This document shows, one piece after another, positions 1,688 to 39,381 of a stretch of 64,000 bases of DNA. The stretch's first letter is position 1; the number at the start of each line of letters is the position of its first letter. Under the pieces are notes generated by a model that worked only from the letters and a program-made list of their open reading frames with translations, had not been told where the DNA came from and ran no database searches. The translations under genes were made by a program, and so were the position numbers. Source of the stretch: Mytilus edulis (lineage: Eukaryota); NCBI RefSeq assembly GCF_963676685.1, contig NC_092352.1, positions 76,322,001 to 76,386,000 of the forward strand. Reading direction: 5' to 3'.

Positions 1688-4040
1688 GGAAGCTGGCTTG
1701 TCATGTTTTGGAATTGTGGTAAGATTTTCGGAATCCTCTGGTTTTGTCCATTTGAATGCATTAACAAATTTTGTCCGGTGACCCCCATTTTTCTATTTAT
1801 AATTCTTTTACATGTATAATCACGGCTGGTAATCTACACACGCAGAACATTTGGTTCTGCAATGAAAACCGTGAGAGGATTTTCCGGTTGTGCTTGGGTG
1901 GAGTAATTGTCACCGCTTCAAAAGGTATGTACATTTCTAAATCTCAATTTTCTTATTCAACTGATCAAAATATTAAAAATCAGAGAATGCTATGCTGTGG
2001 TGAATACTTTAACGAAGAAATACATGTATCATTTACTGTTGTACGTAGAGTTGAACTCTTACAAAATCAGTTGCCCCACGAGAAATCGCCTAAAAAAGTG
2101 ACATTTTAATTTTAAAATGGTTCTATTTACAGACCTACAAGTTCAAATTTAGTTTTTTTTAGGGCAATGGGTATGAATGTTGTTTTGGCGGCGTGTACCC
2201 TGTCCGGTGTTGATAGACGTCTTAATAATTCCAAAAACTACATTTTTTCATTAAGTCATGCGTGAGGGGATCGGTTCTGATTGAGGACATCGTGAATGCG
2301 TGAGGGGAAGTACAGAAATTTTTTTTAATCTTTGGCTTTGTGACTTTTGTTGACTCAATAAATGTGATCAATGCTGATTAAAAATCATCACAGATTTGTC
2401 CTTATACTTTAACAGATGTAAACTGATCACTGATTCAATGAAATCAAACTATTTAAAATTGTTTGCTCAAATTCAGAAAATGTCATTATTCAAAGGTAAA
2501 AGGAAAAGAGGACTAAAATTGACTCTCTACAAAAGCCATGGAGATAAAAGTTGTCCCAGCCCTCGAAGCGAACTAAACCCTGTGGGAGTAGTCCTGTCGT
2601 CAAATATACGTCACAGAGATCACCACATATATTAAAGAAAAGTATATCGCCGATCAAAACTTCAACACTTATATATATTAGACGTAATCTGTTCACCCAA
2701 AATCACGAAATTTCCGAAACAAAAAGGGCAGATATACAGAATTTATTATTCACGAACATCGATGTAAGCCAAGATAATCTCGAGGAAGACCATAAGGAAG
2801 AGCATGTATGAGACAACGAAGAAGACATAGAAGAAGTCACAGAAGAAGACCACGTAGTAGACCACGAGAAAGACCACATGGAAGACATTGAGGAAGAACA
2901 TAAAGTTTTTCAAAGTGCTTTAGATAAAATCTCAGACGAAGGGAAAAGGGAAAGATTTTTTTTTTTTTTTTTTCATTAGTGGACGTTTTCCTTTAAAACA
3001 ACATTGCATTCTACCTGTTTTTGGACATTGTTGAGTGGTTTGAAAAGGACGAATCAAGACGAATGAGATACTCCCCAACATCTCTGCAGTATTTTTGGTT
3101 ATCGTTGACAACATTTTTTGTTTTTATTCTTCGTGAAACATATTATTAAACCCTAGGTTCCAACAATTTATTTCAATATCAATCTCAGTGATTTTTTTAG
3201 CACACATTATGTGTTTTTTCATGAACAATGTAGCCTTATTTAGGTAAGTTTCAACGACTCATAGCTTGAATATAAAGATATTATTTGTACTTCCCCTCAC
3301 GCATTCACGATGTCCTCAATCAGAACCGATCCCCTCACGCATGACTTAATGAAAAAATGTAGTTTTTGGAATTATTAAGACGTCTATCAACACCGGACAG
3401 CGTACACGCCGCAAAAAACAACATTCATACCCATTGCCCTAAAAAAAACTAAATTTGAACTTGTAGGTCTGTAAATAGAACCATTTTAAAATCAAAATGT
3501 CACTTTTTTAGGCGATTTCTCGTGTGGCAACAGATTTTGTAAGAGTTCAACTCTACGTACAACAGTAAATGATACATGTATTTCTTCGTTAAAGTATTCA
3601 CCACAGCATAGCATTCTCTGATTTTTAATATTTTGATCAGTTGAATAAGAAAATTGAGATTTAGAAATGTACATACCTTTTGAAGCGGTGACAATTACTC
3701 CACTCAAGCACAACCGGAAAATCCTCTCACGGTTTTCATTGCAGAACCAAATGTTCTGCGTGTGTAGATTACCAGCCGTGATAATGATAAGCTGTCTGTT
3801 AAAAACTTTTAAAATTTTAATTACTTTTTAATAGTTTTTGAGGACTTTAACTTGTCAATAATAAAGCTATGAAAGTCAAGAGAGACCATTTTCCCGCCAA
3901 AATTTCAATGGCTAATATATCGAAAACGAGCATGGTGACCTATATATTTTTTTGCTCTTTGGATTCCTTTATTAGTCTCCTATCAATATAAACTAGTGTT
4001 TTGAAAATTTAATTACTTTGAAACTGAGAAGCGAACTCCC
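1688..4040. mobile_element. Non-autonomous DNA element with TTAA flanks (Kolobok/piggyBac-like), interrupted by the CAC element
   Basis: TTAA at 1684-1687 and 4041-4044; imperfect terminal inverted repeats GGAAGCTGGCTTGTCA / TGAGAAGCGAACTCCC. Confidence 0.5.
1821..3780. mobile_element. Non-autonomous DNA transposon with ~495-bp TIRs, CAC...GTG ends and 5-bp TSD (ATAAT)
   Basis: 1821-2314 is the near-perfect reverse complement of 3286-3780, which explains the mirror ORFs in the track. ATAAT lies at 1816-1820 and 3781-3785. The ~970-bp interior has decayed coding-like sequence: an acidic tract and GRFPL..NIAFYLFLDIVEWF..MRYS. Confidence 0.9.
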
Positions 4041-4370
4041 TTAAGTAACAAACATTATTGAATGTTGTACGGTGATCTATAGTTATTAATTTCTGTGTCA
4101 TTTTGGTCTCTTATGGTGAGTTGTCTCATTGGCAATCATACCACATGTTCTTTTTTTTTATATAATCATTCAGTTCCTTTGAAATATGGGTTTCTTGTTG
4201 AAATATCAAGACTCCAACCACTAAAACCACAACAAATATAATTACTTTGAATTTTTGAAATACTTTTCTACCTCAGGAATAGATCACCTTAACTGTATTT
4301 GGCAAAACGTTTAGGATTTTTGATCCTTCAACTTCATACTTTATTTGACCTTTAACTTTTTTTAATTCGA

Positions 4371-4414
4371 GCGTCACTGATGAGTCTTTTATGGACGAAA
4401 CGTGCGTCTGGCGT
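4371..4414 (+). ncRNA. Minimal type I hammerhead ribozyme in a retrozyme/Penelope-type repeat (intron 1 of copy 1)
   Basis: GCGTCA-CTGATGA-GTC ttttatg GAC-GAAA-CGTGCG-TC-TGGCGT: intact core, stem I, stem II and near-palindromic stem III. Confidence 0.8.
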
Positions 4415-4485
4415 AAATGCAAAATGACATCCTAGTATCTATGATGAGTTTATCTCTATCAGGATTTTGTTTAAGATCTTAGTAT

Positions 4486-5213
4486 TCTATACGAAGAAGG
4501 AAAGATAACATTTTAAAAAGACAGAGGGCAAATTTATGAAAAACTGATTCTTCCCTTTTCGTGAAGAATTGCTTGGACTTTTGCATGTGAAAACAATATT
4601 GTTTGAGAAGTTATCTGCAAGGAAATCAGCATATGTGTTGTTATAAAAGGATAAAACTTTTTTCAACAACAGGCTTCTATCAAGCATTACACATACTCCT
4701 GTAGACACAGTGCATAGCAGTTTTTGAATGCGCTTAATCTTAGATGCATGCGTAAACAATTTTGATGCAGTCAGATATGAAGTGTATATAAGGAATGCAT
4801 CAAACACATTTCATGGCAGTATCCTTATCAGCATCATTGACAAAAGTGTGTTCTTTTTCCATTAATATTCCTTACAAAACGAGAAGCACCGTGTACAGAA
4901 TTGAGCGTGACAAGAAGCACAACAAACTACTATACAGTCGTTTTTTTTGGATTTTTGTTCAAGTGCAATACTTCCGCTGAATACACTAACATGCTTTCTA
5001 AATGCGCACGGATAAGATGTTTTGACAATGAAATTATTATTTGTTTGTTTAATTCAATTTTGAACTTGCAAAATGCAACATTCACCAACAAGACTATCTT
5101 ACAAAAGAACTTTGAAATCCCAGCAATTCTTCACGAAAAGGGAATAATAATTTTTTCATAAATTTGCCCTCTGTCTTTTTAAAGACTAGATGTTTTTTTT
5201 TTCTTTTATTTAG
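4486..5213. mobile_element. MITE-like element with ~100-bp imperfect inverted ends
   Basis: TTTAAAAAGACAGAGGGCAAATTTATGAAAA...CCCTTTTCGTGAAGAATTGCT near 4510-4575 is inverted near 5120-5185. Outer boundaries are approximate and no clear TSD was seen. Confidence 0.65.
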
Positions 5214-7868
5214 ACCAATTGTGAGGTTTTTGGGGCTAAATTGAGAATTTCTTATTCTATCTTTTTGAACCTACTAGTTTGATAAATAAATGAGCCTACA
5301 CTTATTTTCAGGACATGGATCGACATTTGTTCGTTGGGGAAGAAGTCAGTGCCCATTACAAACAGAGCTTGTTTATTCAGGTATGCAACTTGATAGCGCT
5401 GTTTTGAACTATATTACGATGAAAACAAGAAATGTATCAAATCAAAAGAAAAATGATAATAACTATGAAAATATTTCAAGGAAGACGATGTCGAATAATA
5501 TAAATTATGAGATACTTCTTTCATCAACCTACTTTCAAAAGTGTAGAAATTATAAGGAATGATTTTTATGTTATCCCGATTCCCGCATTTATGAAACAAA
5601 AACATGTTTACTGTATTTTCTTGAATATTTTCTCTTTTGCTGTTTATTCAACGGTAAAAAATGATAATTTAATTATTTTTCTGTATCGTAACTTTGATTC
5701 CTGTATGTACCAGTAATGAAATTATATGTTTTCCTTTATCCCATTAAGGTTATGCTGCTGGTCAGAATACTACTACGCCGCATACCAACTAGGCGGACCT
5801 TCAAATATGCTATGTCTACCGAAAGATCCAGAACTAAGCAATCGTACTGGATCATCAAACGGTCTTTTATATGGTACAGAATTCGAAGAAAATCATTTTG
5901 CACCAGGTTCCGCAGACGAAGATGTTCCTTGTGCCCTCTGTCGGAGTAACAATACCTCTTCGTCTGTAATGATTCATGGTAGAAAATCATGCAACTCCGG
6001 ATGGAAAAGAGAGTACTTTGGTATTTTAGCTTCTAATTGTTTTCATTGCAAAGCTTCGTCGTATATTTGTGTGGATATGAACCCTGAGTATATTGCAGGC
6101 GGAGAAAGAAGTAATGATAATAATTTGTTGTATGCAACAAGTATGAAGTGTGGTTCCCTTCCATGTCCTCCGTACCACAATGATTTGGAAGTATACTGTG
6201 TTGTTTGTTCAAAGTGAAGTTAGTTTGCTCACTTTTAATAAAGGTGACTTTATCTTAATAGCATCATTCGTATATGATTTTTGTTGTATATATTTTGAAA
6301 AATATATATGGCCAGGAGACGAGGAATAACGCCAATGAGTGTCTTTGTCGAATGTCAAATTGGATAAATTAAGTTCAGAACAGTCACACTGACGCATTAG
6401 CTACATAAGCAGTCGTTATTGCAAATGAAAATACGTTTTAGACCAGTAGATATTTCATTGTACGATTCATTCTAAAAATTACTGTTAAGCTCTCTGTATT
6501 TCAGCTGATCATATTACACGGCACGACTATAAATTCAATGTATATTAAATCAATAGAAAACTGAGGTTATGATTTTTTTCTAAATACTTGTTGTATGGTT
6601 ACTGTCTCATTGCATCCTTTTTTCTTTGTTTAAACATACAAGTAAATTCATAACTGTTTTTATCACTACTTGAAGACAGAACCAGTTTAATTTACAACTA
6701 CTATGCAGGACAATTTAGTACATTATCTTAAAATCAAGAATATGATGGTCTTCAAACAATCTGTACTCGATTTCTTTTAACAACTGCTTGAACCCTTTTC
6801 GCTGTTGTGCCAGTTAAATGACAACCAGACTGGCTATGCAGTGCGGACTTTGCTCGTAATTGAAGGCCGTACAGTGAAATGTAAGTGATAATTTCTAAGT
6901 CATTTTTGTCTTCTGTTGAGAGTTGTCTCGTTGGCAATCATGCCACATCATTTTAGATTATTCCTTGAGCATGATTTTTTTCTTTGTTGTTAGCCAGGAT
7001 AGTCTGTACATCTATTTTTGTATATGTGTTGCGTTTGTTGGTGATTGTAGCTTTCAATGGGAGGTGAAGGGTTTCTGTGTTTTACGGCTTGTGTGTTATT
7101 TGTGTTACCTGTAAAAAAAAAAAAAACATGAACAAAAATGATACATATAAATCAATCTTTAAAATGCTGATCAGGATAAGTTACATGGCACCTTTTCAAT
7201 TTGAACTTCGAATTTACTCATAAAAGAGTTCAATTTGTTTTTGTAATAATTGCAGCTTTCTGTTTTTATGGAAGGGTTATTGAGCTGAATGGTGTTTTTG
7301 TGTCATTTTGTGTAAGTGGATGGTCGGCTATGTGATTCAAATTCTCCTATTTTCCAAATACATGTTTTCCCCCTATTCAAAATAACCTACGACTATTGTT
7401 TATATGCAAGAAAACAATCAAGCCATCTAATTAATGAAAAAAAGATGATAAAAAGAAACTGTAATTGTTTAAGCTAAAATGATATTATATACTAATCAAC
7501 AAAAGAAACGATACAAGGCAATGTATTTTCCATATATAATAAAATTGGATACACTATACCGAGGTAAATAATTGCCCTATTGGTCTAATTTTACAGAGTA
7601 TTTTCTCTTCAAAGCCATTGATTTCAGGCAAAAATTGGAACAATTTTCTAGAAATTCCAATATCGATGTAAGAACTTTAAACTTTTAAACTTGAACAGGG
7701 TCTGATAAAATTTTTGAATGCCCTTTGTAGATATTTGAACACTTAATTCTCATTATCGAAATTAAGTACCGACTTTTGTCATCATTTTTCGCAAAATAAA
7801 TTTGACTGCTGTGTCTAATAGCTCGGTATTTCGTTACTTTCCATTTTAATCAAATTCTTTCACAGTGG

Positions 7869-8033
7869 ATTGCATTGAGTGTGTAGGTACAGGTAATATC
7901 TTCGGTTAGCTTGATTGCTAGCTGAACGGTGAAGTCAACTTTAGTTTAGGTAAACTACCCTCAAGCAAGCTAACCAAATATATTACTTTTACCTCGAGCT
8001 CACCTTTACCTTTACCTACACACTCAATGTAAT
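7869..8033. mobile_element. Short palindromic MITE-like hairpin
   Basis: ATTGCATTGAGTGTGTAGGTA...TACCTACACACTCAATGTAAT ends, plus inner GGTTAGCTTG / CAAGCTAACC arms. Confidence 0.6.
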
Positions 8034-8414
8034 CGGTTGTCACCAAATGTATTTGCTTTGTAAATTAATGTTTTTCATAGGATAATTTTACATTTTCCTT
8101 TTTATTATACATATATGATAAAATTTAGTTCAAACTTGCCAGTGGGTCGATGTCACTGCTGGTGGAGATTTATTTCCCCGAGGGTTTCACCAGCCCAGTA
8201 GCCAGCACTTCTGTGTTGACTTGAGTTATCATTGATATGTTCATAATTATAAATTAACTGTTAACAACACTTTAATTTTTTTGAAAAACTAAGCGTTTTC
8301 TACCTCAGGAATAGATTACTGTAGCTGTCTTTGGCAACACTTTTAGGAAATTTCGGTTCTCAGTGCTCTTCAACATCGTGCTTCATTTGGCCTTTAAAAC
8401 ATTTTTTGAATCGA

Positions 8415-8458
8415 GCGTTACTGATGAGTCTTTTGTAGACGAAACGCGCGTCTGGCGT
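8415..8458 (+). ncRNA. Minimal type I hammerhead ribozyme
   Basis: GCGTTA-CTGATGA-GTC ttttgta GAC-GAAA-CGCGCG-TC-TGGCGT; predicted GUC cleavage after 8452. Confidence 0.85.
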
Positions 8459-8627
8459 AAATATAAAATTTTAATCCTGGTATATATGATGAGTTTATTT
8501 GCAACCACTTAGTTGATGCCACTGCTGGTGGAGATTTATTTCCCCTTATCACCAGCCCAGTAGTCAGCACTTCTGTGTTGACTTGAGTTATCATTGATCT
8601 GTTCATATTTATAAATAAACTGTTTAA

Positions 8628-9569
8628 TGCGGGGTTCACACATTGCCGATTATTGCTCCCGTTTGAGATCAGACAGCGTTACGACACGAAAAGTGAAAAA
8701 GCCGGATTAGTACCCTCAATTATCTGGAATGTTCTATTATTGTCTGAACGCAGTCGTTTTAGTTCGTAACAGATTCCTTGTCGGAAAGGGTCAGAATAGT
8801 TCGACAAAGCACCCCGACAGTTAGTTGCGTCCCGTAACATTCGGGGCCGATTTTGTCTAGTCGGATTACAATCGTGCCTATGACGTGACAGATTCTGCTG
8901 TATCGGATCGAATTCCTAACAATGTTCTGTGTATTCGGGAAGGTGTCCTGTGGAACGGGAATGATCTGGAGAAATTTTTCATTGCTGTTTTTCTGCCGAT
9001 TGAGTCCAGATTGCATCCAGATCTTGTCGATTGCGAACAGTCCCGTTATTAATTCTAAACTCGTCAATGATACCCACGTCAGAGTCCCGACAATTACAGA
9101 ATACAATACGACTGAGACCAGACAAAGCCGTTTGCAATGCGATAGAGCGGACCGTGATAGGATTACGTTCCGACAGTACCAGATCATCCCGAGTATGCCA
9201 ACAGTTTTCAAACAGATAACTTCCGTCAGCGTCGGTTCACTGTCTTGTCACTATCTAATCTCTGTTGGAGTACATTCGGTAGAATCGGGACAGACTCGGT
9301 CGAATTTTACCTCCCGAAAAAGACGAATCGGATTAGAAGCGGATTTAGAACGGGATTATCGGGATAAATTCGCTTGGAAACGGTTGAATATCGACGCTTC
9401 CTGAACAATAACTGATTGTTGTCGTGATAATTTTTTTTTTACAAATTTTAATTAAAGTTTGAATTTCCATCTACGATTCATAGGATCTTAATCAGACTTT
9501 TAATAAATTTCAATCTGGAATGGTCTTGTCAAGGACGGCAGAATAAATCGTGAATGTGTGACACCAGCT
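8628..9569. mobile_element. PIF/Harbinger-like non-autonomous element, TAA TSD
   Basis: TAA at 8625-8627 and 9570-9572; imperfect TIRs TGCGGGGTTCACACATT / AATGTGTGACACCAGCT; GC-richer than the flanks; the host repeat rejoins across it. Confidence 0.75.
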
Positions 9570-9722
9570 TAACAAAACTTTAAATTTTGAAAAAAATTAA
9601 GCGTTTTGTACCTCAGGAATAGATTAACTTAGCTGTATTTGGCAACACTTTTATGAATGTTTGGTCCTCAGTGCTCTTCAACATTTTACTTTATTTGGCC
9701 TTTAAAACATTTTTTGATTCGA

Positions 9723-9766
9723 GCGTCACTGATGATTCTTTTGCAGACGAAACGCGCGTCTGGTGT
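9723..9766 (+). ncRNA. Hammerhead ribozyme copy with a stem II mismatch
   Basis: GCGTCA-CTGATGA-TTC...GAC-GAAA-CGCGCG-TC-TGGTGT; the first stem II G is changed to T. Confidence 0.6.
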
Positions 9767-11652
9767 AAATATAACATTTTAATCCTGGTATCTATGATGA
9801 GTTTATTTGTACCGTTTCTTTTGTTGACTAGTATATGTTACTTGTAACTGATCAAATTAAATTTATCGTTTTTTGTTTTTGTTAATTTTTTTGTTGATGT
9901 AGTTAAAAAGATAATGTTGTATTTGATATCTCTATTTGTGTGGTTCAATGCTACATGGAGATCATGCTTACCACTTACGGTTTTGGAATTTAGAAATGGT
10001 GCTACCCATCCTGCATTTATCTTTTTATGTGGATTATATGTCCCTTCAATTTAAAAGTATTAGCTTTAAGTAATCATGCGTGATGCCGTGTACCTATTAG
10101 ATGATTATAATTGTGTACGTAAATTTACTACCTACTTTTTGGAACTTTGGGCCCTTAGTACTCGTCAACTTTGTACATGGTTTGGCTTTCTAACTATTTA
10201 TTTTATCTCAGCGTCCTGGATGAGTCTTATATAAACAACACGCGCGTCTGGCGTATCAACATATAAACCTAGTACATTTTATAACTAATTAAAACTATGG
10301 AACAACTGTGCTTGTAAATAAATCCAATGTTTTATGTTTCATTGCAGATGACCATGGTCATTATTTAACATAGACTTTATGCTTTATGTCTATAGATAAT
10401 TCCGGATTCTTTTATTGATATAACATGTGGTATGGTTGTCAATAAGACAACTATCCACCAAAGTTGAAATAACGTGGATGTAAACACCTGTAGACAACCG
10501 TACAGCGAGATCATGAGAATAATCCGTAATATACACAGCTATTAAAAATGAAACAACACGTTATCAATTTAACACTTTTCCGTATTTACCTTCAACATGA
10601 ACACCCAAAGCCCCGACATGAAAATATGAAACAATTCAATAACGAAGCTAACGGCCTTATTTATAACAAATCTTAAACAATTTACGAATTACAAATATGA
10701 CAGATAAGTTTGTAAGCTGTTTAAAGAAAACCATATGCAAATTTGAAAATGGTGAAAACTTGAAAAATATACTGATTTAAACACTAAAACAAAGTGATGA
10801 ATAAAACTGATAACACTCACATTATTGGCATATATCTTCTTTGTTAACAATTAATTTATCACGAACATGTTAAAACCAACGAAGAGAACAACTTGTGGTT
10901 TTCTATTTCCGCATTAAATCTACTACTTTAGCGACAGAGTGACTTATAAAAGCTCATGTTAAAAATCATTATGGAGACATTATTATTTATTGACTTTCGT
11001 ATAGACGATGTCACCTGTTTAGATAATTAAAGAAGAGGCAATCAAACCTTTCAACTTGAAAAGATAGACTATGTCAAGCAACGGAAAGCATCAAAATACC
11101 CAAGATTGCTGAATTTGTGTTTTTGACCAATGATGTTGTTAAAGTAAATAAAATGGAAGATTGAAAAATATGTGCATAGAATATTTTTTATGATTCAATC
11201 AAAATAGAAAGGTATATCATGATGGCTTGTTTAATGTTATAATTTTTAATCTATTTACACTGGTTTAGTTTAAATCAGTTTATTGGTTTTCTCTTTTGAA
11301 TTATTTCACATTTCATAACAATTTATCAATCAATCAGTTAGAAAAACTATACAAAAGGAACTAAATTTATAATTCTTTATTTTTTTCTTTTTCTTTGCGA
11401 TTTATTTTTTTCCTATTTAAATAAAAGTACAGAATTTTATTGAAATCGATTAACTCTTCGTAACTTTTGTTTCACTGATAATAAAACCAAACATTATTTT
11501 GAACGACGAATAAGTACTTGAAACATGCAGCAAACCTTATCGAACTCTCAACGACTTTTAGAGGTCGGCATTATATTATATATGTGTCAAAGATTAAGTT
11601 ATTCCGTATATTGTGATAACGATTTACTTGTTCTAAACTAAAGATTGACAAT

Positions 11653-14309
11653 ATGGCTATAATAGTCGCATTACAACTCAGTTTATATTTCGGAACATGT
11701 TTAATGGAAGGATTGGGAGAGACAAATGAAATCCACGGATCAAAACGGTTACTTCTAAATGATCCAGATGCCATCAACAACAGATTAAATAATTTGGAAA
11801 GGTCCTTACAACAACAACAAGCAACGATTTTACAACAACAAGCAACAATTCAGCAGCTTAAACAAAATATTCCGCAAGGTGAGTAAATTGCCAAAGTAAG
11901 TAAAATATTTATATAATACTAATTCTGAATATTTTCCTCAATTTTAAAACGCCCTATAACCGGCTTTCCCTTTATCCTATTGACAGCTTTTAACCCTCTT
12001 ACCGGCTACGGATTTAACACCAAAATCTACTGTACAAAATTGCAACGGTAATTCGAATGGCAGACAAAATATGCTATATATAAAATCAGGAACAGATGTA
12101 ATTTGTGTGTCTGCTGTAAAGAATGGCCGTTTATAAGGTGTACAATTTGAAAATTAATTTCTTTACATGATTGGGCGTATTCTTACAGAAGCTGGTTCGT
12201 GAGATTATCAGCATCAAATATTTTCACAACTTCCATGAATAAACATAATTGTTATCGGTGTACATCTTGGAGGGCCAGCACTTATGAGGGTTATTCACAC
12301 ACTTAAACAAGAAAATGGTCATTTGAGACTTTTGTTGTAGTTAAGCATTGATTTATTTGAAGATTTTTTAATTTTTAAAAATGAATAATAGTGTTAACTG
12401 AAAAGAAATTAAAAAAAATGAGATAATTGCAAGAGGGAAAGGATTGTGATTAAAAATTAATGAAGAACAAACATCTGTTTGACACTGCTGGTTGTGTATA
12501 CTGTATCAGATTAGTTTTGAAGACCATCTTTTTCTGTAGGAAATTTCCTATAAGGCCGTAAATACCTGTTTTGAGAACTGGTGTTTTCCTTTGGACGTTT
12601 TTGTTTTATGTCATGGCATTTTCAATTTTGATTTAGTCGTACGACATTGAATATCCGTTAAATATGACATCTTTTTAAACAAACTTCGTACTCTAAGCAG
12701 TTCTTATAAAAAGAAGTAAAATATTAGTGATGCGTCTATCTGCTGCAAATCGATATTCCTTTTGTTAACCAATGACCTGGTCTTACTTTAATAAGTTCTC
12801 CCTTGACGGATATTTTCTTCCAGAGATACCAGATACCAGAGGGACAGTCGAAATAGCACACAAAACAACGTAGAAAATGAAAGACTAAGCAACATGTTTA
12901 ATTATATTTTATCTTTTAGAACAAGGATCTACTTATATACAGTGGGGAAAGGCATCATGTTCATCCATGGGGACAGAAACTATTTATTCAGGTATTCAAA
13001 TATTATTATGATGCATTTCTCAATCTGATACTTTTATAAGTCATTGTCCCTGTATATTTCATTCTGATACATTGCTGATATGTATTACATTGAAAATATA
13101 TGATATATTACTAAGAAAATTGAAATAAAGTAACATTTAACATAAAAGTGAAATGTTCAGTAACGTTTCTTTTGATATTTCAAAATAATTTTGAGATGAC
13201 AGCCACTGTAATATACCTGTCTGGAGATATTTGCTTTCAAAACAATAGGTCATTCTTTCGCAGAATACACAGATAATATCAAGTTAAACAAAATATGCTT
13301 TAAGTCATATGATAATGACATGTGTAAGGCGACGATATTTACTTTGATTGAAATTCAATCTATATTTAACGTTAAACAGAAGACTTAAAAGAAGCAAGAT
13401 TAAACTCTCTTGTGTGTAGGATTTTGAATATCTTATCAATTCTTAATGTAATGAAAACCTTACTATGACTTAAATGCTTGGACCCCTTACATTACGTTAA
13501 CCGTTAAACAAGTAATGTATGTCTTGCTTCATTCAGGTACAGTAATATTTTTTATCTGGCTGGATAACGATTTCTAAAGTTTATATCTAGATTAATGAGT
13601 AATTTTTGTGTCTCATTGTAAATGGGTTCTAGGACGTATTAAAACCTAATCTTAAAGATGGTCGGTAAAACGGGATTGAATTCAGTGGTTTTTTTTCACA
13701 AGCAAAACTTTAAAATATTATCTATAACTTGTCACAAAGAACATTCATTACGATGCTGAAAGATTGTAATTGAATGCATCCATTTTTAGTATTCGTTTTC
13801 ATCGATTGCAGCTTATATATTATGTTGTAGGATACACTGCCGGTCAACTTTATTATGACGCGTCATCATATCCAACCAGGTTTGGGGGACCTTCAAATAT
13901 GCTCTGTCTACCTAATAATCCGAAACTTAGTAACAAAACAGGACCAAGCAACAGTTTTATTTACGGAACAGAGTTTGAAGACAATTTTCTCAGGAATGAC
14001 GCTGCCAATGAAGATATACCTTGTGCATTATGCAGAAGTATGAATACAACTTCTTCTGTAATGTTTCCAGGTCGGAATATTTGTTACAATGGATGGAAGA
14101 CGGAGTATGAAGGCTATGTTATGTCTGGACATTGGGCACACAGGGCATCGTCTTATATTTGCGTTGATCTTCACCCAGATTACATTCCAGGCGGTAAAGC
14201 TGATACTAATGGCCAGCTGTTATATGTGACGGGTACTAAATGTGGTCCACTTTCTTGTCCTCCTTATAACGACAATATAGCTGTCAATTGTGTTGTTTGT
14301 TCTAAATAA
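11653..14309 (+). CDS. Cluster copy 2: intact secreted coiled-coil + short-chain collagen C4-like protein, ~258 aa; exons 11653-11878, 12920-12991, 13831-14309
   Basis: Signal peptide MAIIVALQLSLYFGTCLMEG, KRLLLNDPD, Q-rich heptads. Both introns are GT-AG phase 1 and the 777-nt spliced frame is open. Motifs TYIQWGK..C, CLPNNP, CALC, YICVD, CGPLSCPPY, CVVCSK. Confidence 0.9.
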
Positions 14310-17969: not shown

Positions 17970-19727
17970 GTATATTGTATTTTGCCTATTATTGTAAAAA
18001 CTATAATAGATAGATAGAAACGTTAGTCGCAAAAATGATCAGTAGGACAAGGTCTGTACGGTGACCTATATAGTTGTTAATGTCTGTGTCATTTTGGTCT
18101 TTTGTGGATAGTTGTCTCATTGGCAATCATACCACATCTTCTTTCTTATACTACATGGTCTACAGACAAGTCAACTAAACCAAAAATGAACGTTGAGTTT
18201 TTATCATAGTTATTGTCCCTTTAACAAATTAAATATTTACACTGATTACATTTCGAGCAGACTCTATAAATAATAGAAAAGATAACTGGAAACATTGAAA
18301 ATGACGAACAAGACATAATGAACGAATAACATTATGTAAACAAAGCCAACACGTTCGGTCCATTTCTTTAAAGAATTATTTAACTTGGATGATACTTTTG
18401 TCCATGTTTGAGTTTTGATAAAAGTCTGTAGTAGATAGAGAAAATTAAACAGAAACACATTAAAAAATAAAAAAAAGAGTTTCTAGTCATGAACAACATT
18501 TTAGCGTTTCAGAGCAGTCATTATTGAAGATGCATATAGATCCAGGTAAATGACACAAGCAACTGAGGACTTCAATGTTTTCTTTTCACTGGATATGTAT
18601 TTTTGAAATCTGCATCTTTTATATGGATAAAAGGAACATAATGTTTCACCTTTTTTACTAATGTGGAAACTTGCTAAGGTTTGTATGACATCAAGATAGA
18701 ACGTTAATTATTTAAAGAGTATTGTAAATGGTTTGACGTTCCGTTCTTGGAATTTCGACAGAGAAAAAAATATCATGAAAAGAAAACTGTTTCAGACATC
18801 AAGTTTGAAACCTGAAAGTATGTTTTCGCAAAGCTGCAAGATTGAGTGTGAATCCCTGACCAAAGCTCGAACACAAGTAGTCCGAGATTGCTCTGATGAC
18901 ATGTTTTTCCTGTTTTGAATGAAAACATAGAACATGCAAAAAACGCAAACTGTGTCCTTTTAATTACTCAAGGTTCAACTACGTTCATATCGTTTTGCTC
19001 AAATGAACCTTTTACAGCACGAAAATCGGGAACGAAAATTTATCCCTAGAGTTGTCTCCCATCTCCGGATGTTCTTAACTTTTAGTTACGACCATCCGCT
19101 TACCACCAGTGGTATATGTCTACTGTCTAACAAGACTCATTTTTATATTTTCAAATATATAACCAGAATTGTCATTATATTTTCAAACATGTCCATAAAC
19201 AAAAGCCATCACAATCTTTTTTTGTTGTAGTCTGTGTTTCTGTTGTTCCGTTGTTATCCTCGGTTATAGTTTGTATCCCGGATTTTTTTTTTCTCAACCG
19301 ATTAATGACTTGTGTACAGCGGTATACTATTGTTGCCTTCATTTTTCTGTATCTGTTAATAAAGCAACTATATTGAAGATCTAGTAATATATCAAAATTC
19401 ATTACGAATATTTGTTTTACACATGTAATATATTTTATTTGAATCACAAACTCATAGACAGAAATGCTCCTCCCTCACTTGTGTATGTAACGCACAAGTT
19501 TATATTGATACTGCAATTCCATAGCTGTCCTTTACTAACGAAACAAATTGGGGGAAATGATTTAAAGGAATTTATGATTTATAAAATAATCTTTTATCAA
19601 GATATTTTATTTGTTAATCGACCGCTGTCTTCTTATTTAAATCAAAGTGTCCTACTTAACTTATAATTTCTAGAATGCAATAATCATATGTTTTTATTGA
19701 TGCATACACAAACCTTCTATTTTATAG

Positions 19728-20203
19728 GATATACTGCTGGTCAAGAACATTATAGTTCGTCATATGCAAACAGGTTTGTTTGAGCAGCAAATATGCTTTG
19801 TCTTCCTAATAATCCGAAACCTAGAAATAAAACTGCACCGGGCTACAGTTTTCTTTACGGAACAGAGTTTGAGGGAAATTTTCTCAGGAGTGACGCAGCC
19901 AATGAAGATATACCATGTGCATTTTGCAGAAGTTTAAATACAACTTCATCTGCAATGTTTCCAGGTCGAAATGTTTGCTACCATGGATGGAAGATGGAGT
20001 ATGAAGGCTATGTTATGTCCGGATACTGGGGACACAGGGCATCGTCTTATATTTGTGTTGATGCACATCCAGATTACGTTCCAGGTGGTAAAGCTAATAC
20101 AAATGGCCAGCTGTTATACGTGACGGGTACAAAATGTGGTACACTGACATGTCCGCCATATCACGATAATGTGGTTGTCAATTGTGTTGTGTGTTCCAAA
20201 TAA
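19728..20203 (+). pseudogene. Cluster copy 3: orphan terminal exon with in-frame TGA at 19781-19783
   Basis: Closely similar to exon 3 of copies 2 and 6; RFV* replaces RFGG. No exon 1 or exon 2 was found between 14.3 and 19.7 kb. Confidence 0.85.
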
Positions 20204-22689: not shown

Positions 22690-22754
22690 TATGTTATATT
22701 TTTGCCTATTATTGTAAAAACTATAATATTTAGATAGAAACGTTAGTGGCAAAC

Positions 22755-23294
22755 ATGATCAGTATGACACGGTCTACAGACAGGTCCCCTAAGCCAACAA
22801 TGATCAGTAGGACAAGGTCTACAGACAGGTCAACTAAGCCAAAAATTATCAGAAGGACAAAGTCTACAGACAGGTCAACTAAGCAAAAAATGATCAGTAG
22901 GACAAGGTTTACAGACAGATCAACTAAGCCAAAAATGATCAGTAGGACAAGGTCTACAGACAGGTCAACTAAGCAAAAAATGATCAGTAGGACAAGGTTT
23001 ACAGACAGATCAACTAAGCCAAAAATGATCAGTAGGACAAGGTATACAGACAGGTCAACTAAGCCAAAAATGATCAGTAGGACAAGGTCTACAGACAGGT
23101 CAACTAAGCTAAAAATAATCAGTAGGACAAGGTATACAGACCGGTCAACTAAGCCAAAAATGATCAGTAGGACAAGGTCTACAGACAGGTCAACTAAGCT
23201 AAAAATAATCAGTAGGACAAGGTATACAGACCGGTCAACTAAGCCAAAAATGATCAGTAGGACAAGGTCTACAGACAGATCAACTAAGCCAAAA
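22755..23294. repeat. 45-bp minisatellite, 12 copies
   Basis: Unit ATGATCAGTAGGACAAGGTCTACAGACAGGTCAACTAAGCCAAAA in direct tandem with no spacers. Confidence 0.95.
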
Positions 23295-24330
23295 ATGAGC
23301 GTTGAGATTTTATCGTAGTTATTGTCCCTTTAACAAATTAAATTTTTACACTAATTACATTTCGAGCAGACTCTATAGAAAATAGAATTAATTGGAACCA
23401 TCTGTTTTAGAGCAGTCATTATTGAAGATACATATAGATCCAGGTAAATGACACAAGCGACTGAGGCCTTCAATGTTTTCTTTTCACTGGATATGTACTT
23501 TTGAAATCTACATTTTGTATGGAAAAAAGGAACATGATGTTTCATCTTTTATTACTAACACGGAGGCATTGATAAGGTATGTATTATATTAAGATAGCAC
23601 GTTAATTATCTAAAAGTATAGCAAATGGTTTGACGTTCCCTCTTTCCGTTCTTGGGATTTCGAGAGAGAAAAAAATATCATGAAAAGAAAACAGTTGCAG
23701 ATATCAATTTTGAAATGTGAAAGTATGATTTTGCAAAGTGTGAATCCATGACCAAAGTTCAAACACAAGAAGTCCGAGATTGCTCTGACGGCATATTTTT
23801 ATGTATTGAAAGAAGACATTGAACATGCAGAAAATGTAAACTGTGTCCTTTTAATTACTCAAGGTTCAACTACGTTCACATCGTTTGCGCATATCATCTA
23901 GAATGTAGTAATTTATGTGATGAAATTAAGCAAATCCCGATTCTTTTGATAAAAGCAAAAACATTTCACTGAAAATAAAATATTAAGATAATTCGTTTTC
24001 GTTGCAAAGGATTATTATGAGCGGGAAACATACAAAAACGAACCTTAAATGCATGGTTTGTCTACTTTACAATGTTTAATTTTATTATTTTGACACAATG
24101 TGCTTAACGAATGCTGATGATGAACTTGGGGCTTGAGGCAATTATAATAACTAAAATGTGAAATACCTAAACTGTTCGATACCAGTTGCAAGAAAAATCT
24201 TGTTTTCCAATACACTGCCAAGTTATAGACGGGGCATTACGTACATACGGTGTTTAGTTTATTGTGCATTGTATTTGTATAACCTATAACTTTCTGATAA
24301 GAAAGTTCAACCGGACTGATTTCGACAGAA

Positions 24331-26927
24331 ATGATTAAGCTTTACACTTCAATGTCGTTGATCCTTTTTTTACAGTTTTTACTGTGTTTCAGTAATGGTA
24401 GAGGAGAGGATAATGTGGAAAACACAGACGGAAGCAACAAACGTTTATTACTTAATGACCCAGACGCAATTTACAATAGGCTTGAACATTTAGAACGATC
24501 ACTTCAACAACAACAAGCTACAATACTTCAACTGACACGCAATATGCCTCTCAGTAAGTATCTTTACGGTGAAATAATTTTGTTATCAGTTGACTTTTTG
24601 ATATTACCAGAAGGAGTTGGAGGTTCAAAATATTAAACTTCACGTTAACTGCACTCGACAAAATAAACTCTACCCAAAGGCAGCTTTTAATTAAATATTC
24701 GACACACAACATGTTTAAAGTAATGTATAAGGAAACTAAAAATAAATATTCATGAGTATTGTCTCCAAAAAAATCTTTCGTCGCAATTATTGGGTTTTAG
24801 TTTATTCGTAGTAAATTTCTGCATTTCTAACAAATTATAGAAAACAAAATCGTCGTCCATTTCTGTCAAATATTTTATATATCTTGTACTGTATAATGAA
24901 CCCTATCCTTCCTTTCAATTTTAACAACATGCTATGTCTCTGTCTCTCGTACTGTATGTCACTGTATTTAGATGTTTTAGTCCGTTGTAGTGTATGCCTG
25001 TGAAAAGTAAAATATCAAAATAGCTGTTCATACAATTTGTATCATACTAATGTGTACAGGAGAATAAACACTACTGAATGATCTGAACATAGGCTTAATA
25101 TCTTATTAGACTACAAGCACATTGTCAGAATGGTACTGATATTACCGCAGTAGAAAAAGACCGAACGACTAAAAAACATTTTATAATATATTGTTCAGTC
25201 TGGTAAGTTATTTTTCAGAAGAGATTTTTTTCGCTAGTGAAGGTGTAGATTATCTTCAATTACGATTGGAAAATATCAGTTTCGAGTATGAATTATTCGA
25301 AAGTTTCGACTTTGTTGCAAACTTGTAGTGAATATGACAATAGACATAAAGAAGACTTTTTTTGATCTCATTACTGTCTGTTCCCACCATATAAATATTT
25401 TTTTTGTATATTAAAAACAATTTTTATAATTATTCAGATCAAGGATCAAATTACATACAGTGGGGGAAACTTATTTGTTCAGCTGCAGAAACAGTTTACT
25501 CAGGTATGGTGTGTTTAACCTTCATTACACTTCAAAACTAGTTGGTGATTTGACGATCGGTTTTTTAGTTTTATCTGATGACTCGCAACGGAGTCAGTAA
25601 CACTGTTTAAAAGATGTAAATCAATTAAGTGAAAAACAAATCCGGATTACAAAGTAAAACCGTGGAAAAAACATCAACTATAAGCGAGAAACAACGGAAC
25701 AACGAAAACTGCAATAACAAAGGCTATTTGATAATAACTGCCAAATTCCTGATTTGGTACAAAACAAAACTGTCATTCTTAATGCCATACTAGTGAAATT
25801 TTTTAAATAAAAATTTGAAATATCCCCAGAGTATCGTCCGCGATGGTGCAAAGTTGTTGACATTGACTTATACCACCAACTGTTGTCGCCAAATGTAAAA
25901 ATGATATATCATCCAATAAAAATGACGATACATGTCTTACAGCACTAGGATTATAAGGAGTATTATATATAGTATTTTTGTCATAATAATCAATTGCTAT
26001 GCACTATTTAGGAAAGGATGCCACGTAATCTAAAAATCATAGAATCGTATAATCATGCATTCCAACCTTTCCGGTTTGTGGATCTCCAGTGCTCCCCAAC
26101 TTCTTAATCGATATGGTCTTTTAATTTTGCTTTTATTCGAGCGTCATTTGTAAATATTTTGTAGACAAAACGCTCGTCTGGTGTTCAACATGTCAAGCCT
26201 AGTATCTCTGATGAGTTTATTTACAAGTATTGTCTTTGAACATAAACTTCAATACTGGTTAAGCGCAGAAACCCTACGAAATGTGAATTGTTATAAATGA
26301 ATTGATTGCGAAGTTTCCATTTACTAGGCAATTTGCAAATCCTTGAAATGTAATGCAGCGGTTTTATATTTATAATTACTTTCATTTTCGGACGATACAC
26401 TCGCCTTATCTTCAAACTCATTTCAGCAGCTTCACATGTTGCATTTTATAGGATTTGCCACTGGACAGCGGTATGATACAACAAAGTATACAGACAGGTT
26501 TGGTGGACCAGCGAACTTTCTTTGCCTACCTAATAATCCAGAATTAAGTAACAGAACAATTCCGGGTAACAGTTTTATTTACGGCACTGAATACGAAGAG
26601 AACTTTTTGCACAGCGACTCGGACAGTGAGGATGTACCTTGTGCCTTTTGCAGAAGTAACGGTTCAGCTTCAACAGCAATGTTTCCAGGAAGAAAGACCT
26701 GCTACGATGGTTGGAAAATGGAATATTTGGGGTATATTATGTCTGGGTATTTTGGTTATAGAGCTTCGTCTTATATCTGTGTTGATATAGATGGGGAATA
26801 CGTTCAAGGTGGTAAACCTGATATTGACGGGCAAGCATTGTATGCAACGGGTACGAAGTGCGGAACACTCCCTTGTCCACCGTACAATGACAATATGGCT
26901 GTGTATTGTGTGGTTTGTTCCAAATAA
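24331..26927 (+). CDS. Cluster copy 4: intact secreted coiled-coil + short-chain collagen C4-like protein, ~254 aa; exons 24331-24553, 25438-25503, 26452-26927
   Basis: Signal peptide, KRLLLNDPD, phase-1 GT-AG introns, open 765-nt spliced frame ending CVVCSK*. Confidence 0.9.
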
Positions 26928-29302
26928 ACATATGGTATACACACAGAATATGTTGTGATAATTATAAGAAAACTTAATATATAATATAAAAAGATACCAG
27001 ATGGACATTCAAACTCATTAATAGAAAATTAACTGACAACGCCATGGCAAAAAATTAACACCAAACAAACAAACAGGCAGACAGACAGACAAACAATATT
27101 ACACAAAACACAACATAGTTTACGCTCTGCTTAAAAAAAGAAATTTCGTTTTAATTTGTATTGTCCTGATTATTGACACGCTTATAAGAACATTCATTAT
27201 ACCTTATAAACCAATGTCCTTTGAAATTTGTTTTTATCGTTTTTATCACGCAAAAACAGAACTGTATTGTTGATTAGATGGACTGGTTTGTTATAAACTT
27301 TGACATTAAAAAGACGAAACAGGAACAAATATACATCTAAAATGTTTATCAAAGGATTTTTATCGCGGTGTTGAATGCCCATTGGTGGCCTTTGGCTGTT
27401 TTATGCTTTTTGGTCTGGATGTTGTCTCTTTGACATATCCCCCATTTTCATTCTCAATTTTGTATTATCATTTTATAATAGAATATAATGCTATTCACAT
27501 GTATAGCAAAAGAACATCCCTCACTTGCTTTCATTGCGTTTTCGATATTTCTAAAACAAACTTTCAGTGGTTGTCGTTTATTGCTGTGTAACATTTGTTC
27601 ATTATTTAGGTATATAAATAAGGCCGTTAGTTTTCCCATTTGAATTGTTTTACATTTGTCATTTCGGTGCCTTCTATAGCTGACTATGCGGTATGGACTT
27701 TGCTCATTGTTGAAGGTAATACTGTGCTTTATAGTTGTAAATGATTTAAAATACTGAATAAGACTTGGAAACGTTCAATCTCGAGGTTGCCACCCTTCGT
27801 ACCTAATTAAAAAAAAGAGCAAGTCCAATTATCATGCTTAAATACTGAATATAGTGTAAATAAAGACAACAATAGTATACTGCTGTTCAGAAGTGCAGCA
27901 AAAAACAAACGACAATGTAATATACATAGAAACGAACTATTAAATAACAACTGCCATATTCCTGACATGGTACAGGACATTTCATGAAAAAAGGGTGGGT
28001 TGAACCTGGTTTTTTGGCTAGCCAAACCTTATTTCTTCATGGCAATGCAAAATATACCGCAAATACAGTACAAATTAATACAGGAACAATCAGGACAGAT
28101 AAATACATAAATAAATAATATAATAGTACATTTCGACATGTTAATCACAGAAAAACAACGAATACATAATAGGTCATGGATAGTAATTATGGGTTGCAAT
28201 GGGTTGTAATAGGTCAATAATACAACGAATAGGTCATGGATCGACATTCGTTCGTTGGAGGAGGAGCCAGTGTCCATTACAAACAGAACTTGTCTATTCA
28301 GATATATAACGTAAGCTATGTTTTAATTTAGCAGAACGAAATTTAAGATGTATAAAAAATATAAAGACTCTATTAATATTTCAAAAACGGGTATGAATAA
28401 TATGAATTTGAGAAATTATAGTTTTATTCCACAAAGTTTCAAAACTAAATATTTAAGTCTTTCAAGTGACGGTGTGCCACTGCTGGTGGATGTATCGCTC
28501 ACGAGGGTATCATCGGTCTAGTACACAGCACTCCGGAGTTGACATGAATATCAAAGGTATGGTCATTTTTATACATCATTTTTTTTCAAAAGTATGAATT
28601 ATTCGAAATACTAAGGATTTTCTTAACATAGACCTTTATTACCTGATCCGTATTTGGCACAACTTTTTGGAATTTTTGGCCATCGATGCCTTTCCTCTTT
28701 ATACTTGTTATTGGCTTTTTAACTATTTTGACCTGCGCGTCACTGATGAGTCTGATACCGTCGACTAACATTGGTGTATAGACCGACGTTCACCAGACGT
28801 ACAGAGAAAATTGACAAAGTCTGTATACGTTCTATGCACGCAAGAGGAACGCTAAGCAATCGTTAGATGCGTTTTGCAGAAGTTCAAAGTACGTCGAAAT
28901 GCAAAGGTATACGCTTAGCAACGCTTTAACGGAGGGAATTTCTATGCAACATTAATACCGGCGTCACACATCAGCGTATAGCTCCAACGTACGCCGGACG
29001 TGTTAAAAAAAATCATGAACACTGCCAATACGCTAGTAATTTTGGATGCCTTCAACCTGTCAATTATATCTGTATCGTGTGCACAACGAGCGTTAAGCGT
29101 GTATTGGGCGTACAAGAAGCGTACCTAAGCTTTAATCTGGCGTTCAAGTAACGTATGTTGGCGTTTATCTAATGTAGATGGAATGCACACTACAAAGGAA
29201 AAGAAGTCTCTTGAACGTATTTGAGACGCGTCCCGGTCGTATCTGGGAAGATAATCCGTGCTTTCGGCGTGTCTGGGACGTTTTATCATGGGGTGTTTGT
29301 AA

Positions 29303-33774: not shown

Positions 33775-34380
33775 AGATTCACATCTAGCATGCTTAGACA
33801 TTGATAATAAGTGTCGTTTGAAAATAAAACTTTACGACAAAAAAGATGACTTCAGCTTCCAATTGTGAATTTTCCATTTATATTTAGCAACATGCCAGCA
33901 CCGCCTGCATAATGAGTAGATATAGCCCAGTTGAATGTCTCATCATAACTTCTTTTATTGATGGTTGCTACTCACAAGAAATTTATTAAACCAAGAGTTC
34001 CAAGTAGTGAAGTTGAAGTCATTCCTTCGTAAGTTTTATGGACGCTTTCACGAATTGGTAGACCGTGATGGAATATCCGTATCACAGATTATAACGGATA
34101 TATTTCTAATGTCATTAATATGTGACCGTCCGAATTCGACTTATTACCGAGTTTATAATAACATGAGCAACACGAAGGTTGCCACATGGGGATTAGCTTA
34201 CCCCTTCCAGAGACCATGAGATCAACCCTGTTTTTGGAGAGTTGCATGTCGTTCAGTCTTAAGTTATGTTTTGTGTATTATTATATGTCTATTGGTACTT
34301 TTCTATTTTAGCCTTGGCGTTGTCTGTTTATTGTCGACATATAAATTCGATTGCCCCTCTGGTATCTTTAGCCTCTCTTT
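33775..34380 (+). mobile_element. Decayed Penelope-like retroelement RT C-terminal fragment plus 3' repeat
   Basis: Broken translation KLYDKKDDFSF..VNFPF..SNMPAPPA...LLTRNLLNQEFQVVKLKSFLRKFYGR resembles mollusc Penelope-type RT ends (recalled, not searched). Confidence 0.6.
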
Positions 34381-38800: not shown

Positions 38801-39381
38801 GAATCTCCTTTACCATGTAGAATTCTTGTTTTGTCTATTTGTATAATAATCATCATGATTATCCGTTTGTCATCAATTATATCCTTATGTAATATTTTGT
38901 AGGATATGTCGCTGGTCAACTTTTTTATTCTTCGTCATCATATCAAAACAGGTTTGGAGGACCAGCAAATACTCTTTGTCTCCCTAATAATCCAAAATTA
39001 AGTAATAGAACAACACAAAGTTATAGCTTTATATACGGCGCAGAGTTCGAAGAAAATTTTCTCAGGAGTGACGCTATCAACGAAAATATACCATGTGCAT
39101 TTTGCAGGAGTCTTAATACCACCTCTTCTTCAATGTTTCCTGGTAGAAATATTTGCTACAGCGACTGGAAAATAGAATATGAAGGATATATCATGTCCGG
39201 ATACTGGGGACATAGAGCCTCTACATACATTTGCGTTGATGCACATCCAGATTACGTTCACGGTGGTAAAGCTGATGAAATTGGCCAGCGATTTTATGTG
39301 ACAAGTACAAAATGCGGTTCCCTCTCTTGTCCACCATATCACGATAACCTGGCTGTCAATTGTGTTGTGTGTTCCAAATAA
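35809..39381 (+). CDS. Cluster copy 6: intact secreted coiled-coil + short-chain collagen C4-like protein, ~272 aa; exons 35809-36076, 37861-37932, 38903-39381
   Basis: Signal peptide MNRALSSCVVYFCLAFAFG, KRLLLNDPD, longer heptad region; phase-1 GT-AG introns; open 819-nt spliced frame. Confidence 0.9.

Follow-up and report, generated by a model that had tools for sequence, protein, structure and literature searches.

A dimeric hammerhead repeat in Mytilus edulis, very probably a decayed non-LTR retrozyme copy split by a DNA transposon

Mussel retrozymes and the locus at 8140-9809

Metazoan retrozymes without long terminal repeats (non-LTR retrozymes) are described in the cited parts of PMC7229834 as non-coding repeats of 150-450 bp, arranged head-to-tail and carrying a type I hammerhead ribozyme, with a GC content below 50%; a target-site duplication of more than 4 bp is named there as an optional ('when present') mark. 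For Mytilus galloprovincialis, the same parts report about 5000 type I hammerheads of two families in 350-390 bp repeats, and a published dimer construct named DRtz_Mg353. For this retrozyme, the cited parts of PMC7229834 (preprint 10.1101/721605) report self-cleavage, ligation by RtcB and circles in abundance, from work in vitro or in tissue. Here, we analyzed 64,000 nucleotides (nt) of Mytilus edulis contig NC_092352.1 (hereafter, the window) and, within it, the repeat locus at 8140-9809. This locus is very probably a decayed dimeric insertion of a Mytilus non-LTR retrozyme, that is, of a non-coding, non-autonomous retroelement, later split by a DNA transposon.

The locus was resolved with self-BLAST, nhmmer and a repeat finder into unit 1, 116 bp of unit 2, a 942-bp insertion and a further 240 bp of unit 2, all units on the + strand. 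Unit 1 is complete (8140-8511); by alignment it covers 8146-8511, about 366 bp, with a 5' edge between about 8135 and 8146. Over 113 aligned nt, the 5' part of unit 2 (8512-8627) shares 93% identity with unit 1; it has the left TAA (8625-8627) at its end. The 3' part (9570-9809) is 89% identical to unit 1, has the right TAA (9570-9572) at its start and stops 49 nt past its own cut site. With the insertion set aside, the unit length at the locus is 363-366 bp and the GC content 0.34-0.37; the longest ATG frames are 24 aa (sense) and 62 aa (antisense), and the unit is non-coding. The initial annotation had described a tandem, head-to-tail repeat of ~370 bp. The dimer has units of 363-366 bp, but it is not a continuous array, and Tandem Repeats Finder gave no array at the locus. 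The span 8140-9808 had also been given as plain repeat, which omitted the unrelated 942-bp insertion, 56% of its length. Immediately upstream, at 7868-8034, lies an imperfect inverted repeat (8006-8034 with 7868-7896) with a weak, chance-level mir-9 match.

The 942-bp insertion (8628-9569) is a probable non-autonomous DNA transposon, judging from its imperfect terminal inverted repeats of 34 nt (8629-8662 and 9535-9568, 74% complementary) and the TAA that flanks it on both sides. Terminal inverted repeats and a 3-bp TWA duplication mark PIF/Harbinger elements. The 3-bp TAA duplication with inverted repeats, which we take to indicate a PIF/Harbinger-like non-autonomous element, suggests this type. 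The insertion is single-copy within the window; each of its sites is covered by dozens to about 100 contigs in the public run X15 and, therefore, it is a multi-copy element. It has 43% GC and is CpG-rich (observed/expected 1.41 versus 0.88 for the window), and Pfam returned nothing for its two longest open frames (8759-9247 on the - strand and 8889-9404 on the + strand). One contig row connects the end of the insertion to its start.

The predicted cut sites of the two units, 8452 and 9760, lie 1308 nt apart, or 363 nt without the insertion. Because of this spacing and a damaged second ribozyme, no ~370-nt monomer is expected from the locus, and on its sequence the 8140-9809 copy is unable to release unit-length RNA. 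The proposal that it yields a small circular RNA of ~370 nt was thus not sustained. An active retrozyme locus is defined in bioRxiv 10.64898/2026.07.22.740005 by complete hammerheads in two consecutive units; here, the spacing is 1308 nt and the G10.1-C11.1 pair is broken in the second motif.

As for the host, a single-exon gene for a rhodopsin-family G protein-coupled receptor (53029-54135, - strand; protein clustering) served as a genus marker; proteins assigned by name to M. galloprovincialis and M. trossulus match its product at 97.7% and 97.5% identity, respectively. The unit showed the features of metazoan non-LTR retrozymes, namely the hammerhead, the repeat size, the non-coding sequence, the low GC, the Mytilus host, the multiple copies and transcription. 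It resembles the M. galloprovincialis retrozyme in genus, in the 350-390 bp unit range, in low GC without an open reading frame (ORF), in one type I hammerhead per unit, in head-to-tail layout, in many copies and in having more than one related ribozyme family. Additionally, the hammerhead is not freely folded in the predicted circle, and a passage of the 2020 paper notes the same for some mussel circles. The 8140-9809 copy differs in being split by a DNA transposon and in having one damaged ribozyme. The family is almost certainly the mussel non-LTR retrozyme already described by Cervera & de la Peña 2020 (PMC7229834). The initial call of a retrozyme family of the kind processed in mussels therefore fits a published Mytilus family, including the cleavage and circles reported in the parts of that paper cited here. 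As this copy is disabled, and the family with its self-cleavage and its circles has been known from Mytilus since 2020, the locus itself adds little as a finding.

Outside the window, an independent marine contig (L003) contains an array that is not interrupted, repeats every 353-355 bp and matches unit 1 at 83% identity over 458 nt. The pattern scan of metagenomes resulted in five loci, all with Rfam hammerhead matches; the scans resulted in no loci in viral contigs and none in prokaryote genomes. Most of the reads over the hammerhead come from the 353-355 bp subfamily, from which the subfamily at our locus has diverged by about 17%.

The retrozyme family is transcribed. Three raw RNA runs from two studies were used, of which 6%, 6% and 18% were read and whose species may differ from that of the window; read mapping covered four of 24 listed runs, and small-share rows were unused. 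Reads were matched to 8263-9569 at 85% likeness, a threshold that gathers reads from all of the family, and family reads occurred in all three RNA runs (3819, 4793 and 2728). Depth over the hammerhead was about 1500-1800 (X21, X22) and 950-1000 (X24), and mostly below 50 over the insertion. The orientation expected for sense RNA was in excess in two runs, 1.7-1.8-fold over the hammerhead and 3.7-4.5-fold over 8527-8614; the third run gave no excess. Reads at least 99% alike to the locus were few (23 of 3819, 36 of 4793 and 18 of 2728). Between 91 and 95% of the reads continue into sequence that differs from the locus, and the most frequent of these loose ends correspond to the L003 subfamily.

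In the family, RNA is transcribed from tandem copies and cut once per unit by the type I hammerhead, and a host ligase then turns the ~350-390-nt monomer into a circle, with cleavage, circles and ligation as reported for M. galloprovincialis. In the history that we propose, a borrowed reverse transcriptase (RT), most likely from a Penelope-like element (PLE), would insert copies of the circle or of an uncut multimer at new sites; RT borrowing from PLEs is proposed in bioRxiv 10.64898/2026.07.22.740005 and in a cited part of PMC7229834. At 8140-9809, one such insertion would have left two units, the 942-bp transposon would later have entered unit 2 at a TAA, and the units would have drifted to 89-93% identity. 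If read through, the locus could give at most one cut at 8452, or a 1308-nt piece if the damaged second ribozyme works.

An active locus would instead be cut at 8452 and 9760 to give a 1308-nt chimeric circle carrying the transposon, or would trim a host transcript by a single cut. Hammerhead 1 is intact, both motifs keep an 8-nt palindrome and could pair as a dimer, and circles of 150 to more than 1000 nt are given as possible in the cited part of PMC7229834. However, the G10.1-C11.1 pair is broken in hammerhead 2, near-identical reads are few, and the depth drops over the insertion, in runs whose species may differ. The locus also lies between an exon-like ORF whose end is at 6217 and the leader-exon motif that comes next, at 11743. 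We regard an active locus as very improbable.

Hammerhead motifs and their support

Hammerhead 1, a type I motif at 8415-8458 (+ strand), matched Rfam RF00163 with 29.8 bits (E 2.9e-4), and all 11 checked core positions and all 11 pairs are intact. The CUGAUGA/GAAA/GUC core, the 6-bp helix I, the 3-bp helix II (4 bp with a U-A pair), the palindrome ACGCGCGU in the helix III region and the predicted cut after 8452 are all present there, as initially annotated. Helix I carries one C-G to U-G change, and position 8419 is T in this copy and C in 96-97% of the family reads. Hammerhead 2 (9723-9766, + strand; predicted cut after 9760) matched with 20.3 bits (E 0.39). Its core is intact, and a change of G10.1 to U breaks the G10.1-C11.1 pair at the base of helix II, so that this motif is probably weak or dead.

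Two further sites matched Rfam Hammerhead_1, 4371-4414 with 30.4 bits (E 1.8e-4) and 61751-61794 with 31.2 bits (E 1.4e-5). The latter was missed in the whole-window E-value scan, which listed three hammerheads, and was recovered in a 1-kb scan. In total, four window sites and six sites across all five outside loci matched this family, with 20-33 bits. The motifs share with the RF00163 model the core, the three-helix layout and the GAAACGCGCGUC helix III of its consensus; they differ from it in the helix I sequence, in loop 2 and in scores below its gathering value. A descriptor scan found three complete motifs in the window (4371, 8415 and 61751), against a mean of 0.17 and a maximum of 1 in 30 shuffled windows. 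Among the nine motifs listed initially, core and pairs are both intact in two (8415 and 4371), 1-5 core changes occur in 10211, 26141, 47453, 62243 and 63597 (- strand), and 28737 is broken off within helix II. The statement that each unit has the core holds, then, for 4371, 8415 and 9723, the last with its broken pair, and not for the remaining six.

In the motifs, helix I has 6 bp, helix II 3-4 bp and helix III 2 bp with a palindromic tetraloop, with 6 nt between A15.1 and U16.1. The canonical metazoan hammerhead is defined in a cited part of PMC4209133 by a helix I of 6 bp, a helix II of 4 bp and a helix III of 1-2 bp with a palindromic loop. By sequence, the ribozyme of the unit is of this canonical type and not of the PLE minimal type, which has a core-only helix III, a long helix II and a short helix I; the 'minimal type I' label is replaced accordingly. 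The minimal hammerheads in the pseudo-long terminal repeats (pLTRs) of PLEs are similar in being type I, in the palindromic helix III region, in tandem context and in possible dimer cleavage (cited parts of PMC4209133 and PMC7761336). The same parts describe them as usually without non-conserved helix III nucleotides, and in Schistosoma with a helix II of 7-8 bp and a helix I of 4-5 bp; the mussel unit has the dimensions given above and no adjoining PLE ORF.

Covariation was assessed in nine copies selected because their motif is nearly intact, four from the window and five from the outside loci; this set omits five window motifs that are decayed, the 28737 copy, which is broken off, and one unit of L003. 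In this alignment, 97.9% of the cells pair and three of the 11 pairs are doubly changed, one per helix, which none of 500 shuffles reached. A possible extension of helix I (columns 10-14 with 70-74) was also tried; 75% of its cells pair, partly through misalignment, and it was set aside as unproven.

The initial annotation had expected these motifs to act as dimers. The 8-bp duplex of a dimer helix III is predicted at -13.3 kcal/mol, compared with +2.4 for the hairpin, and folding models thus leave a dimer fold possible. Most invertebrate type I motifs cleave as monomers, according to the cited part of a review (PMC7761336), and for a genomic repeat cloned from mussel a self-cleavage rate of about 0.1/min is given in that of PMC7229834. 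With such a rate, a lack of cleavage as monomer is not expected.

Several results weigh against the retrozyme reading. Flush target-site duplications were absent at all 11 insertions in the window, where the longest shared stretch was 4-6 nt, and membership in the published family is drawn from host, size, anatomy and abundance, not from sequence identity to clones MN642551-MN642576. The proposed Infernal check with the type I model gave matches at 4371, 8415 and 9723; however, every Rfam Hammerhead_1 match fell below the gathering score of 34, and a gathering-threshold scan gave none. All three double changes come from one sequence (61751), so that each helix contributes a single independent event. 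When the decayed copies were included and 61751 was left out (14 copies), the signal did not exceed that of shuffles, of which 40 of 500 matched the double-changed pairs and 32 of 500 the score. The hammerhead is not the predicted fold, with a helix I probability of 0.01-0.06 in circular folds; local folding of three window motifs gave z between +0.6 and +1.1, and the circles were not stabler than shuffles (z +2.2 and -1.3). No read-end pile-up was seen at 8452/8453 in the three RNA runs, which are fragmented short-read libraries, and no circle-proving RNA joint was found among the rows shown for them.

Some of these results would also fit a plain satellite-like repeat that multiplied through duplication at the DNA level and whose ribozyme-like motif is vestigial or due to chance. 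Under this explanation, matches below the gathering score, six of nine listed motifs changed in the core or broken off, and a predicted fold other than the hammerhead would be unsurprising. It is nevertheless extremely unlikely given the compensatory changes in all three helices of the diverged 61751 variant, the three full motifs against 0.17 by chance, and the polar truncation and fixed 3' end of the copies reported below. Published cleavage and circles for the mussel family (cited parts of PMC7229834) count against it too, if the sequences match.

Dispersed copies, their 3' ends and the mobilizing partner

We found 11 retrozyme insertions within the 64 kb and, except for the dimer, all are dispersed single fragments, not tandem. 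On the + strand, and with 3' ends counted from the cut site, a 5'-truncated single copy (4244-4453) keeps the intact hammerhead at 4371-4414 (cut after 4408) and ends at +46. A decayed, 5'-truncated copy nearer to the L003 subfamily (10134-10291) has four core changes and ends at about +43; another decayed, 5'-truncated copy (26087-26226) has five and ends at +52. The copy at 28466-28753 starts near the unit start and is broken off within helix II, by alignment. The copy at 47246-47520 is 5'-truncated, with one core change, three broken pairs and an alignment ending at +31, and a decayed copy (62189-62318) has four core changes. A divergent third variant (61702-61827) carries the intact hammerhead at 61751-61794 (cut after 61788) with compensatory changes in helices I, II and III. 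Two short pieces complete the + strand set, a 3' fragment of the L003 subfamily (31725-31792) ending at +42 and a 52-bp fragment (43905-43956) running from -4 to +47. On the - strand, one decayed, 5'-truncated copy (63519-63810) has two core changes, with C17 changed to A, and ends at +46. The earlier list of about ten copies is thus supported in that all nine of its positions fall in homologous copies, although it missed 61751-61794, 31725-31792 and 43905-43956.

The 61751-61794 variant has its own, different 8-nt palindrome and is single-copy in the window; from its sequence, it may represent a further mussel retrozyme family beyond the two named in PMC7229834. Ten of the 11 insertions share the orientation of the gene cluster around them, the + strand (two-sided P 0.012, one window, post hoc). 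The hammerhead of the 4244-4453 copy lies in sense orientation between the leader-exon motif at 1192 and the exon-like ORF at 5720-6217; this copy is probably intronic and could cut pre-mRNA. The copies at 26087 and 47246 are placed similarly between exon-like features, but they are decayed.

The 3' ends were measured against two natural subfamily references that extend well past the ribozyme; the outside loci were identified through their hammerhead, a criterion that leaves the position of their 3' end free. As a result, 11 of 15 insertions ended 41-52 nt past the cut site, i.e., seven of 11 in the window and all four non-tandem outside loci. The remaining four ended at -21, +1, +2 and +31, and two of these (61730 and 62189) are poorly aligned. 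The 5' ends are variable, from -4 to about -300. Eleven of 15 ends in a 12-nt window were reached in none of 200000 trials under uniform ends, and in one when the ends were confined to -40..+60. With a single reference and the window copies alone, five of ten ends fell in an 11-nt window (P 0.0008 under the uniform null and 0.08 under the restricted null); the stronger result depends on the second subfamily reference and on the four outside loci. Sequence beyond +50 aligns well between the subfamilies, and the boundary is therefore not due to loss of alignment. Additionally, at 8500, 258, 382 and 211 reads and 472 contigs depart from the reference, and the sequence into which they continue is mixed (agreement 0.40-0.43).

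Among the 11 copies with an end at +41 to +52, 10 cross the cut site and reach 18-190 nt or more beyond it on the upstream side. Because such ends lie less than 52 nt from the 5' end of a cut monomer, yet the copies cross the cut site, the template would have been a ligated circle or an uncut multimer. We tentatively read this as internal priming at one defined position on the circle or uncut multimer, a possible footprint of PLE-style initiation on retrozyme RNA, for which the case is close to balanced. If this is true, the fixed 3' end points to an RNA element bound by the partner RT. The dimer, which starts at about +54 relative to the cut site and ends at +49, would represent two full turns, and the 43905-43956 fragment (-4 to +47) would be a single case of reverse-transcription run-off on cleaved RNA.

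The closest parallel is the Poseidon element PAc of Anolis. The cited parts of PMC11167929 describe reverse transcription of the anole PLE as beginning internally, as seen in vitro, downstream of the hammerhead, with genomic copies that end there and with uncut RNA as the main insertion substrate. PAc and the mussel retrozyme are alike in this fixed start downstream of the cut. According to the same parts, PAc differs in being autonomous, in starting 85-92 nt downstream of the cut (which, with the cut at +26, lies 111-118 nt inside the ORF) and in a second site that makes a 30-40 bp tail; the mussel copies end at +41 to +52, with no second site found. A fixed 3' end of mussel retrozymes was not found in the main texts of the literature, to which our search was confined, with supplements and repeat databases outside its scope. 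Which enzyme mobilizes animal retrozymes, and which RNA form it uses, is an open question in the field, for which the fixed 3' end is a cheap handle.

Three candidates related to these ends were tried. A GC-rich stem-loop just after the 3' end site folds well in two of five pieces (z -3.2 and -2.5) and not in three, with no double changes in 16 pairs of five sequences. Segmental duplication as the cause of the shared ends was rejected, as what the flanks have in common is limited to short stretches of other repeats at a distance from the junctions. For the 47246 copy, a second, tail-like end another 40 nt along was also rejected (score 23 versus 21.4 +/- 3.5, with 166 of 500 shuffles as high).

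Fixed 3' ends with variable 5' ends are also the geometry of PLEs, seen in the Naiad-type 3' region of this window as well, and the units could be the pLTRs (3' ends) of an autonomous, hammerhead-bearing PLE after 5' truncation. Linear multimeric RNA of that element itself would then be copied, and circles would be a by-product. Animal retrozymes have been argued to be non-autonomous PLE derivatives from vertebrate data, with mussels unmentioned; in Xenopus, 24 of 57 retrozyme families match transposable elements, nearly all of them PLE termini (bioRxiv 10.64898/2026.07.22.740005). The uncut RNA that is the main substrate in the anole PLE (PMC11167929, cited part) favors such an origin too. 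However, the longest copies (this locus and L003) extend upstream into another unit and not into an ORF, no RT match adjoins a copy, and the motif is canonical, not PLE minimal. A pLTR origin is quite unlikely on this evidence; it concerns origin and template, and is largely compatible with a decayed retrozyme dimer at 8140-9809.

RT matches occurred only at 33.8-34.1, 50.2-50.8 and 51.5-52.0 kb, and none adjoins a retrozyme copy. The clearest is the 3' end of a Naiad-type PLE (50850-51915, - strand), with the last 98 RT codons (51915-51622) and the 3' region. Over these 98 residues it is 88% identical to a relative (P0193) that has DKA with Cys at +8, YLDD, a stop after the thumb and no C-terminal GIY-YIG, and the window ORF stops at the same place. 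A decayed RT fragment with stops and frameshifts (50249-50788, - strand; tblastn, best E 1e-37) and a weak protein family match (33820-34099, + strand) are also Naiad-type. Neither the RT fragments nor their relatives gave a Pfam match; the sequences used for the relatives start past the N-terminal GIY-YIG/CxC region. By the DKA motif and the missing C-terminal endonuclease in the close relative, the remnants are, on sequence grounds, of a Naiad-type PLE and agree with the Naiad clade in these features (cited part of PMC8557442). The Naiad 3' region has 14 further window copies, 11 of which end at positions 718-738 of 776. Its copies are 5'-truncated (e.g., 4053-4156, 6829-6949, 18056-18153, 27563-27743, 31087-31423, 41085-41330 and 45065-45257), and the 3' fragments split 8 to 7 by strand, unlike the retrozyme insertions. 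A DKA-like stretch at 4490-4810 (- strand), beside the 4371 copy, was rejected as a PLE fragment (score 39 versus 36.9 +/- 5.7, with 169 of 500 shuffles as high).

The initial annotation saw Penelope-like RT fragments as a hint at the mobilizing partner. Remnants of a PLE, of Naiad type, are indeed present; however, they are broken, without a hammerhead core in their 3' region or similarity to the unit (score 24 versus 22.3 +/- 2.4 in shuffles, 50 of 200 as high) and, therefore, their co-occurrence with retrozymes does not name the partner. A Naiad partner is possible by abundance alone. Naiads dominate bivalve genomes, as stated in the cited part of PMC8557442, and the 15 Naiad 3'-region pieces in the window share the fixed-3'-end geometry. 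Nevertheless, the same part describes Naiads as lacking canonical hammerheads, no sequence is common to both families, and two abundant families sharing one 64-kb window says little. We therefore consider it doubtful that the Naiad element with remnants here mobilized the retrozyme.

Other features of the window

The window contains a tandem cluster of at least eight paralogous genes on the + strand that end in a Cys-rich domain (...CVVCSK), some of which look frameshifted. The Cys-rich ORFs are at 5720-6217, 13770-14309, 19784-20203, 26376-26927, 31927-32420, 38893-39381, 45199-45791 and 48579-49115, and leader exons with a KRLLL-D motif are at 1192, 11743, 24439, 35893 and 46783, also on the + strand. 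Pfam returned nothing for the one domain of the cluster tested, and no tRNA genes were found in the window. On the - strand, 57925-60642 is an open frame of 905 aa; its product combines an nSTAND3 NTPase domain with about 12 ankyrin repeats and is likely of innate-immune receptor type. A 45-bp tandem array at 22750-23298 (12.2 copies) has open frames on both strands. Finally, two inverted duplications were detected, 1816-2327 with 3273-3785 (513 bp at 97%) and 4512-4580 with 5115-5183 (69 bp at 93%), and these are possibly transposon termini.

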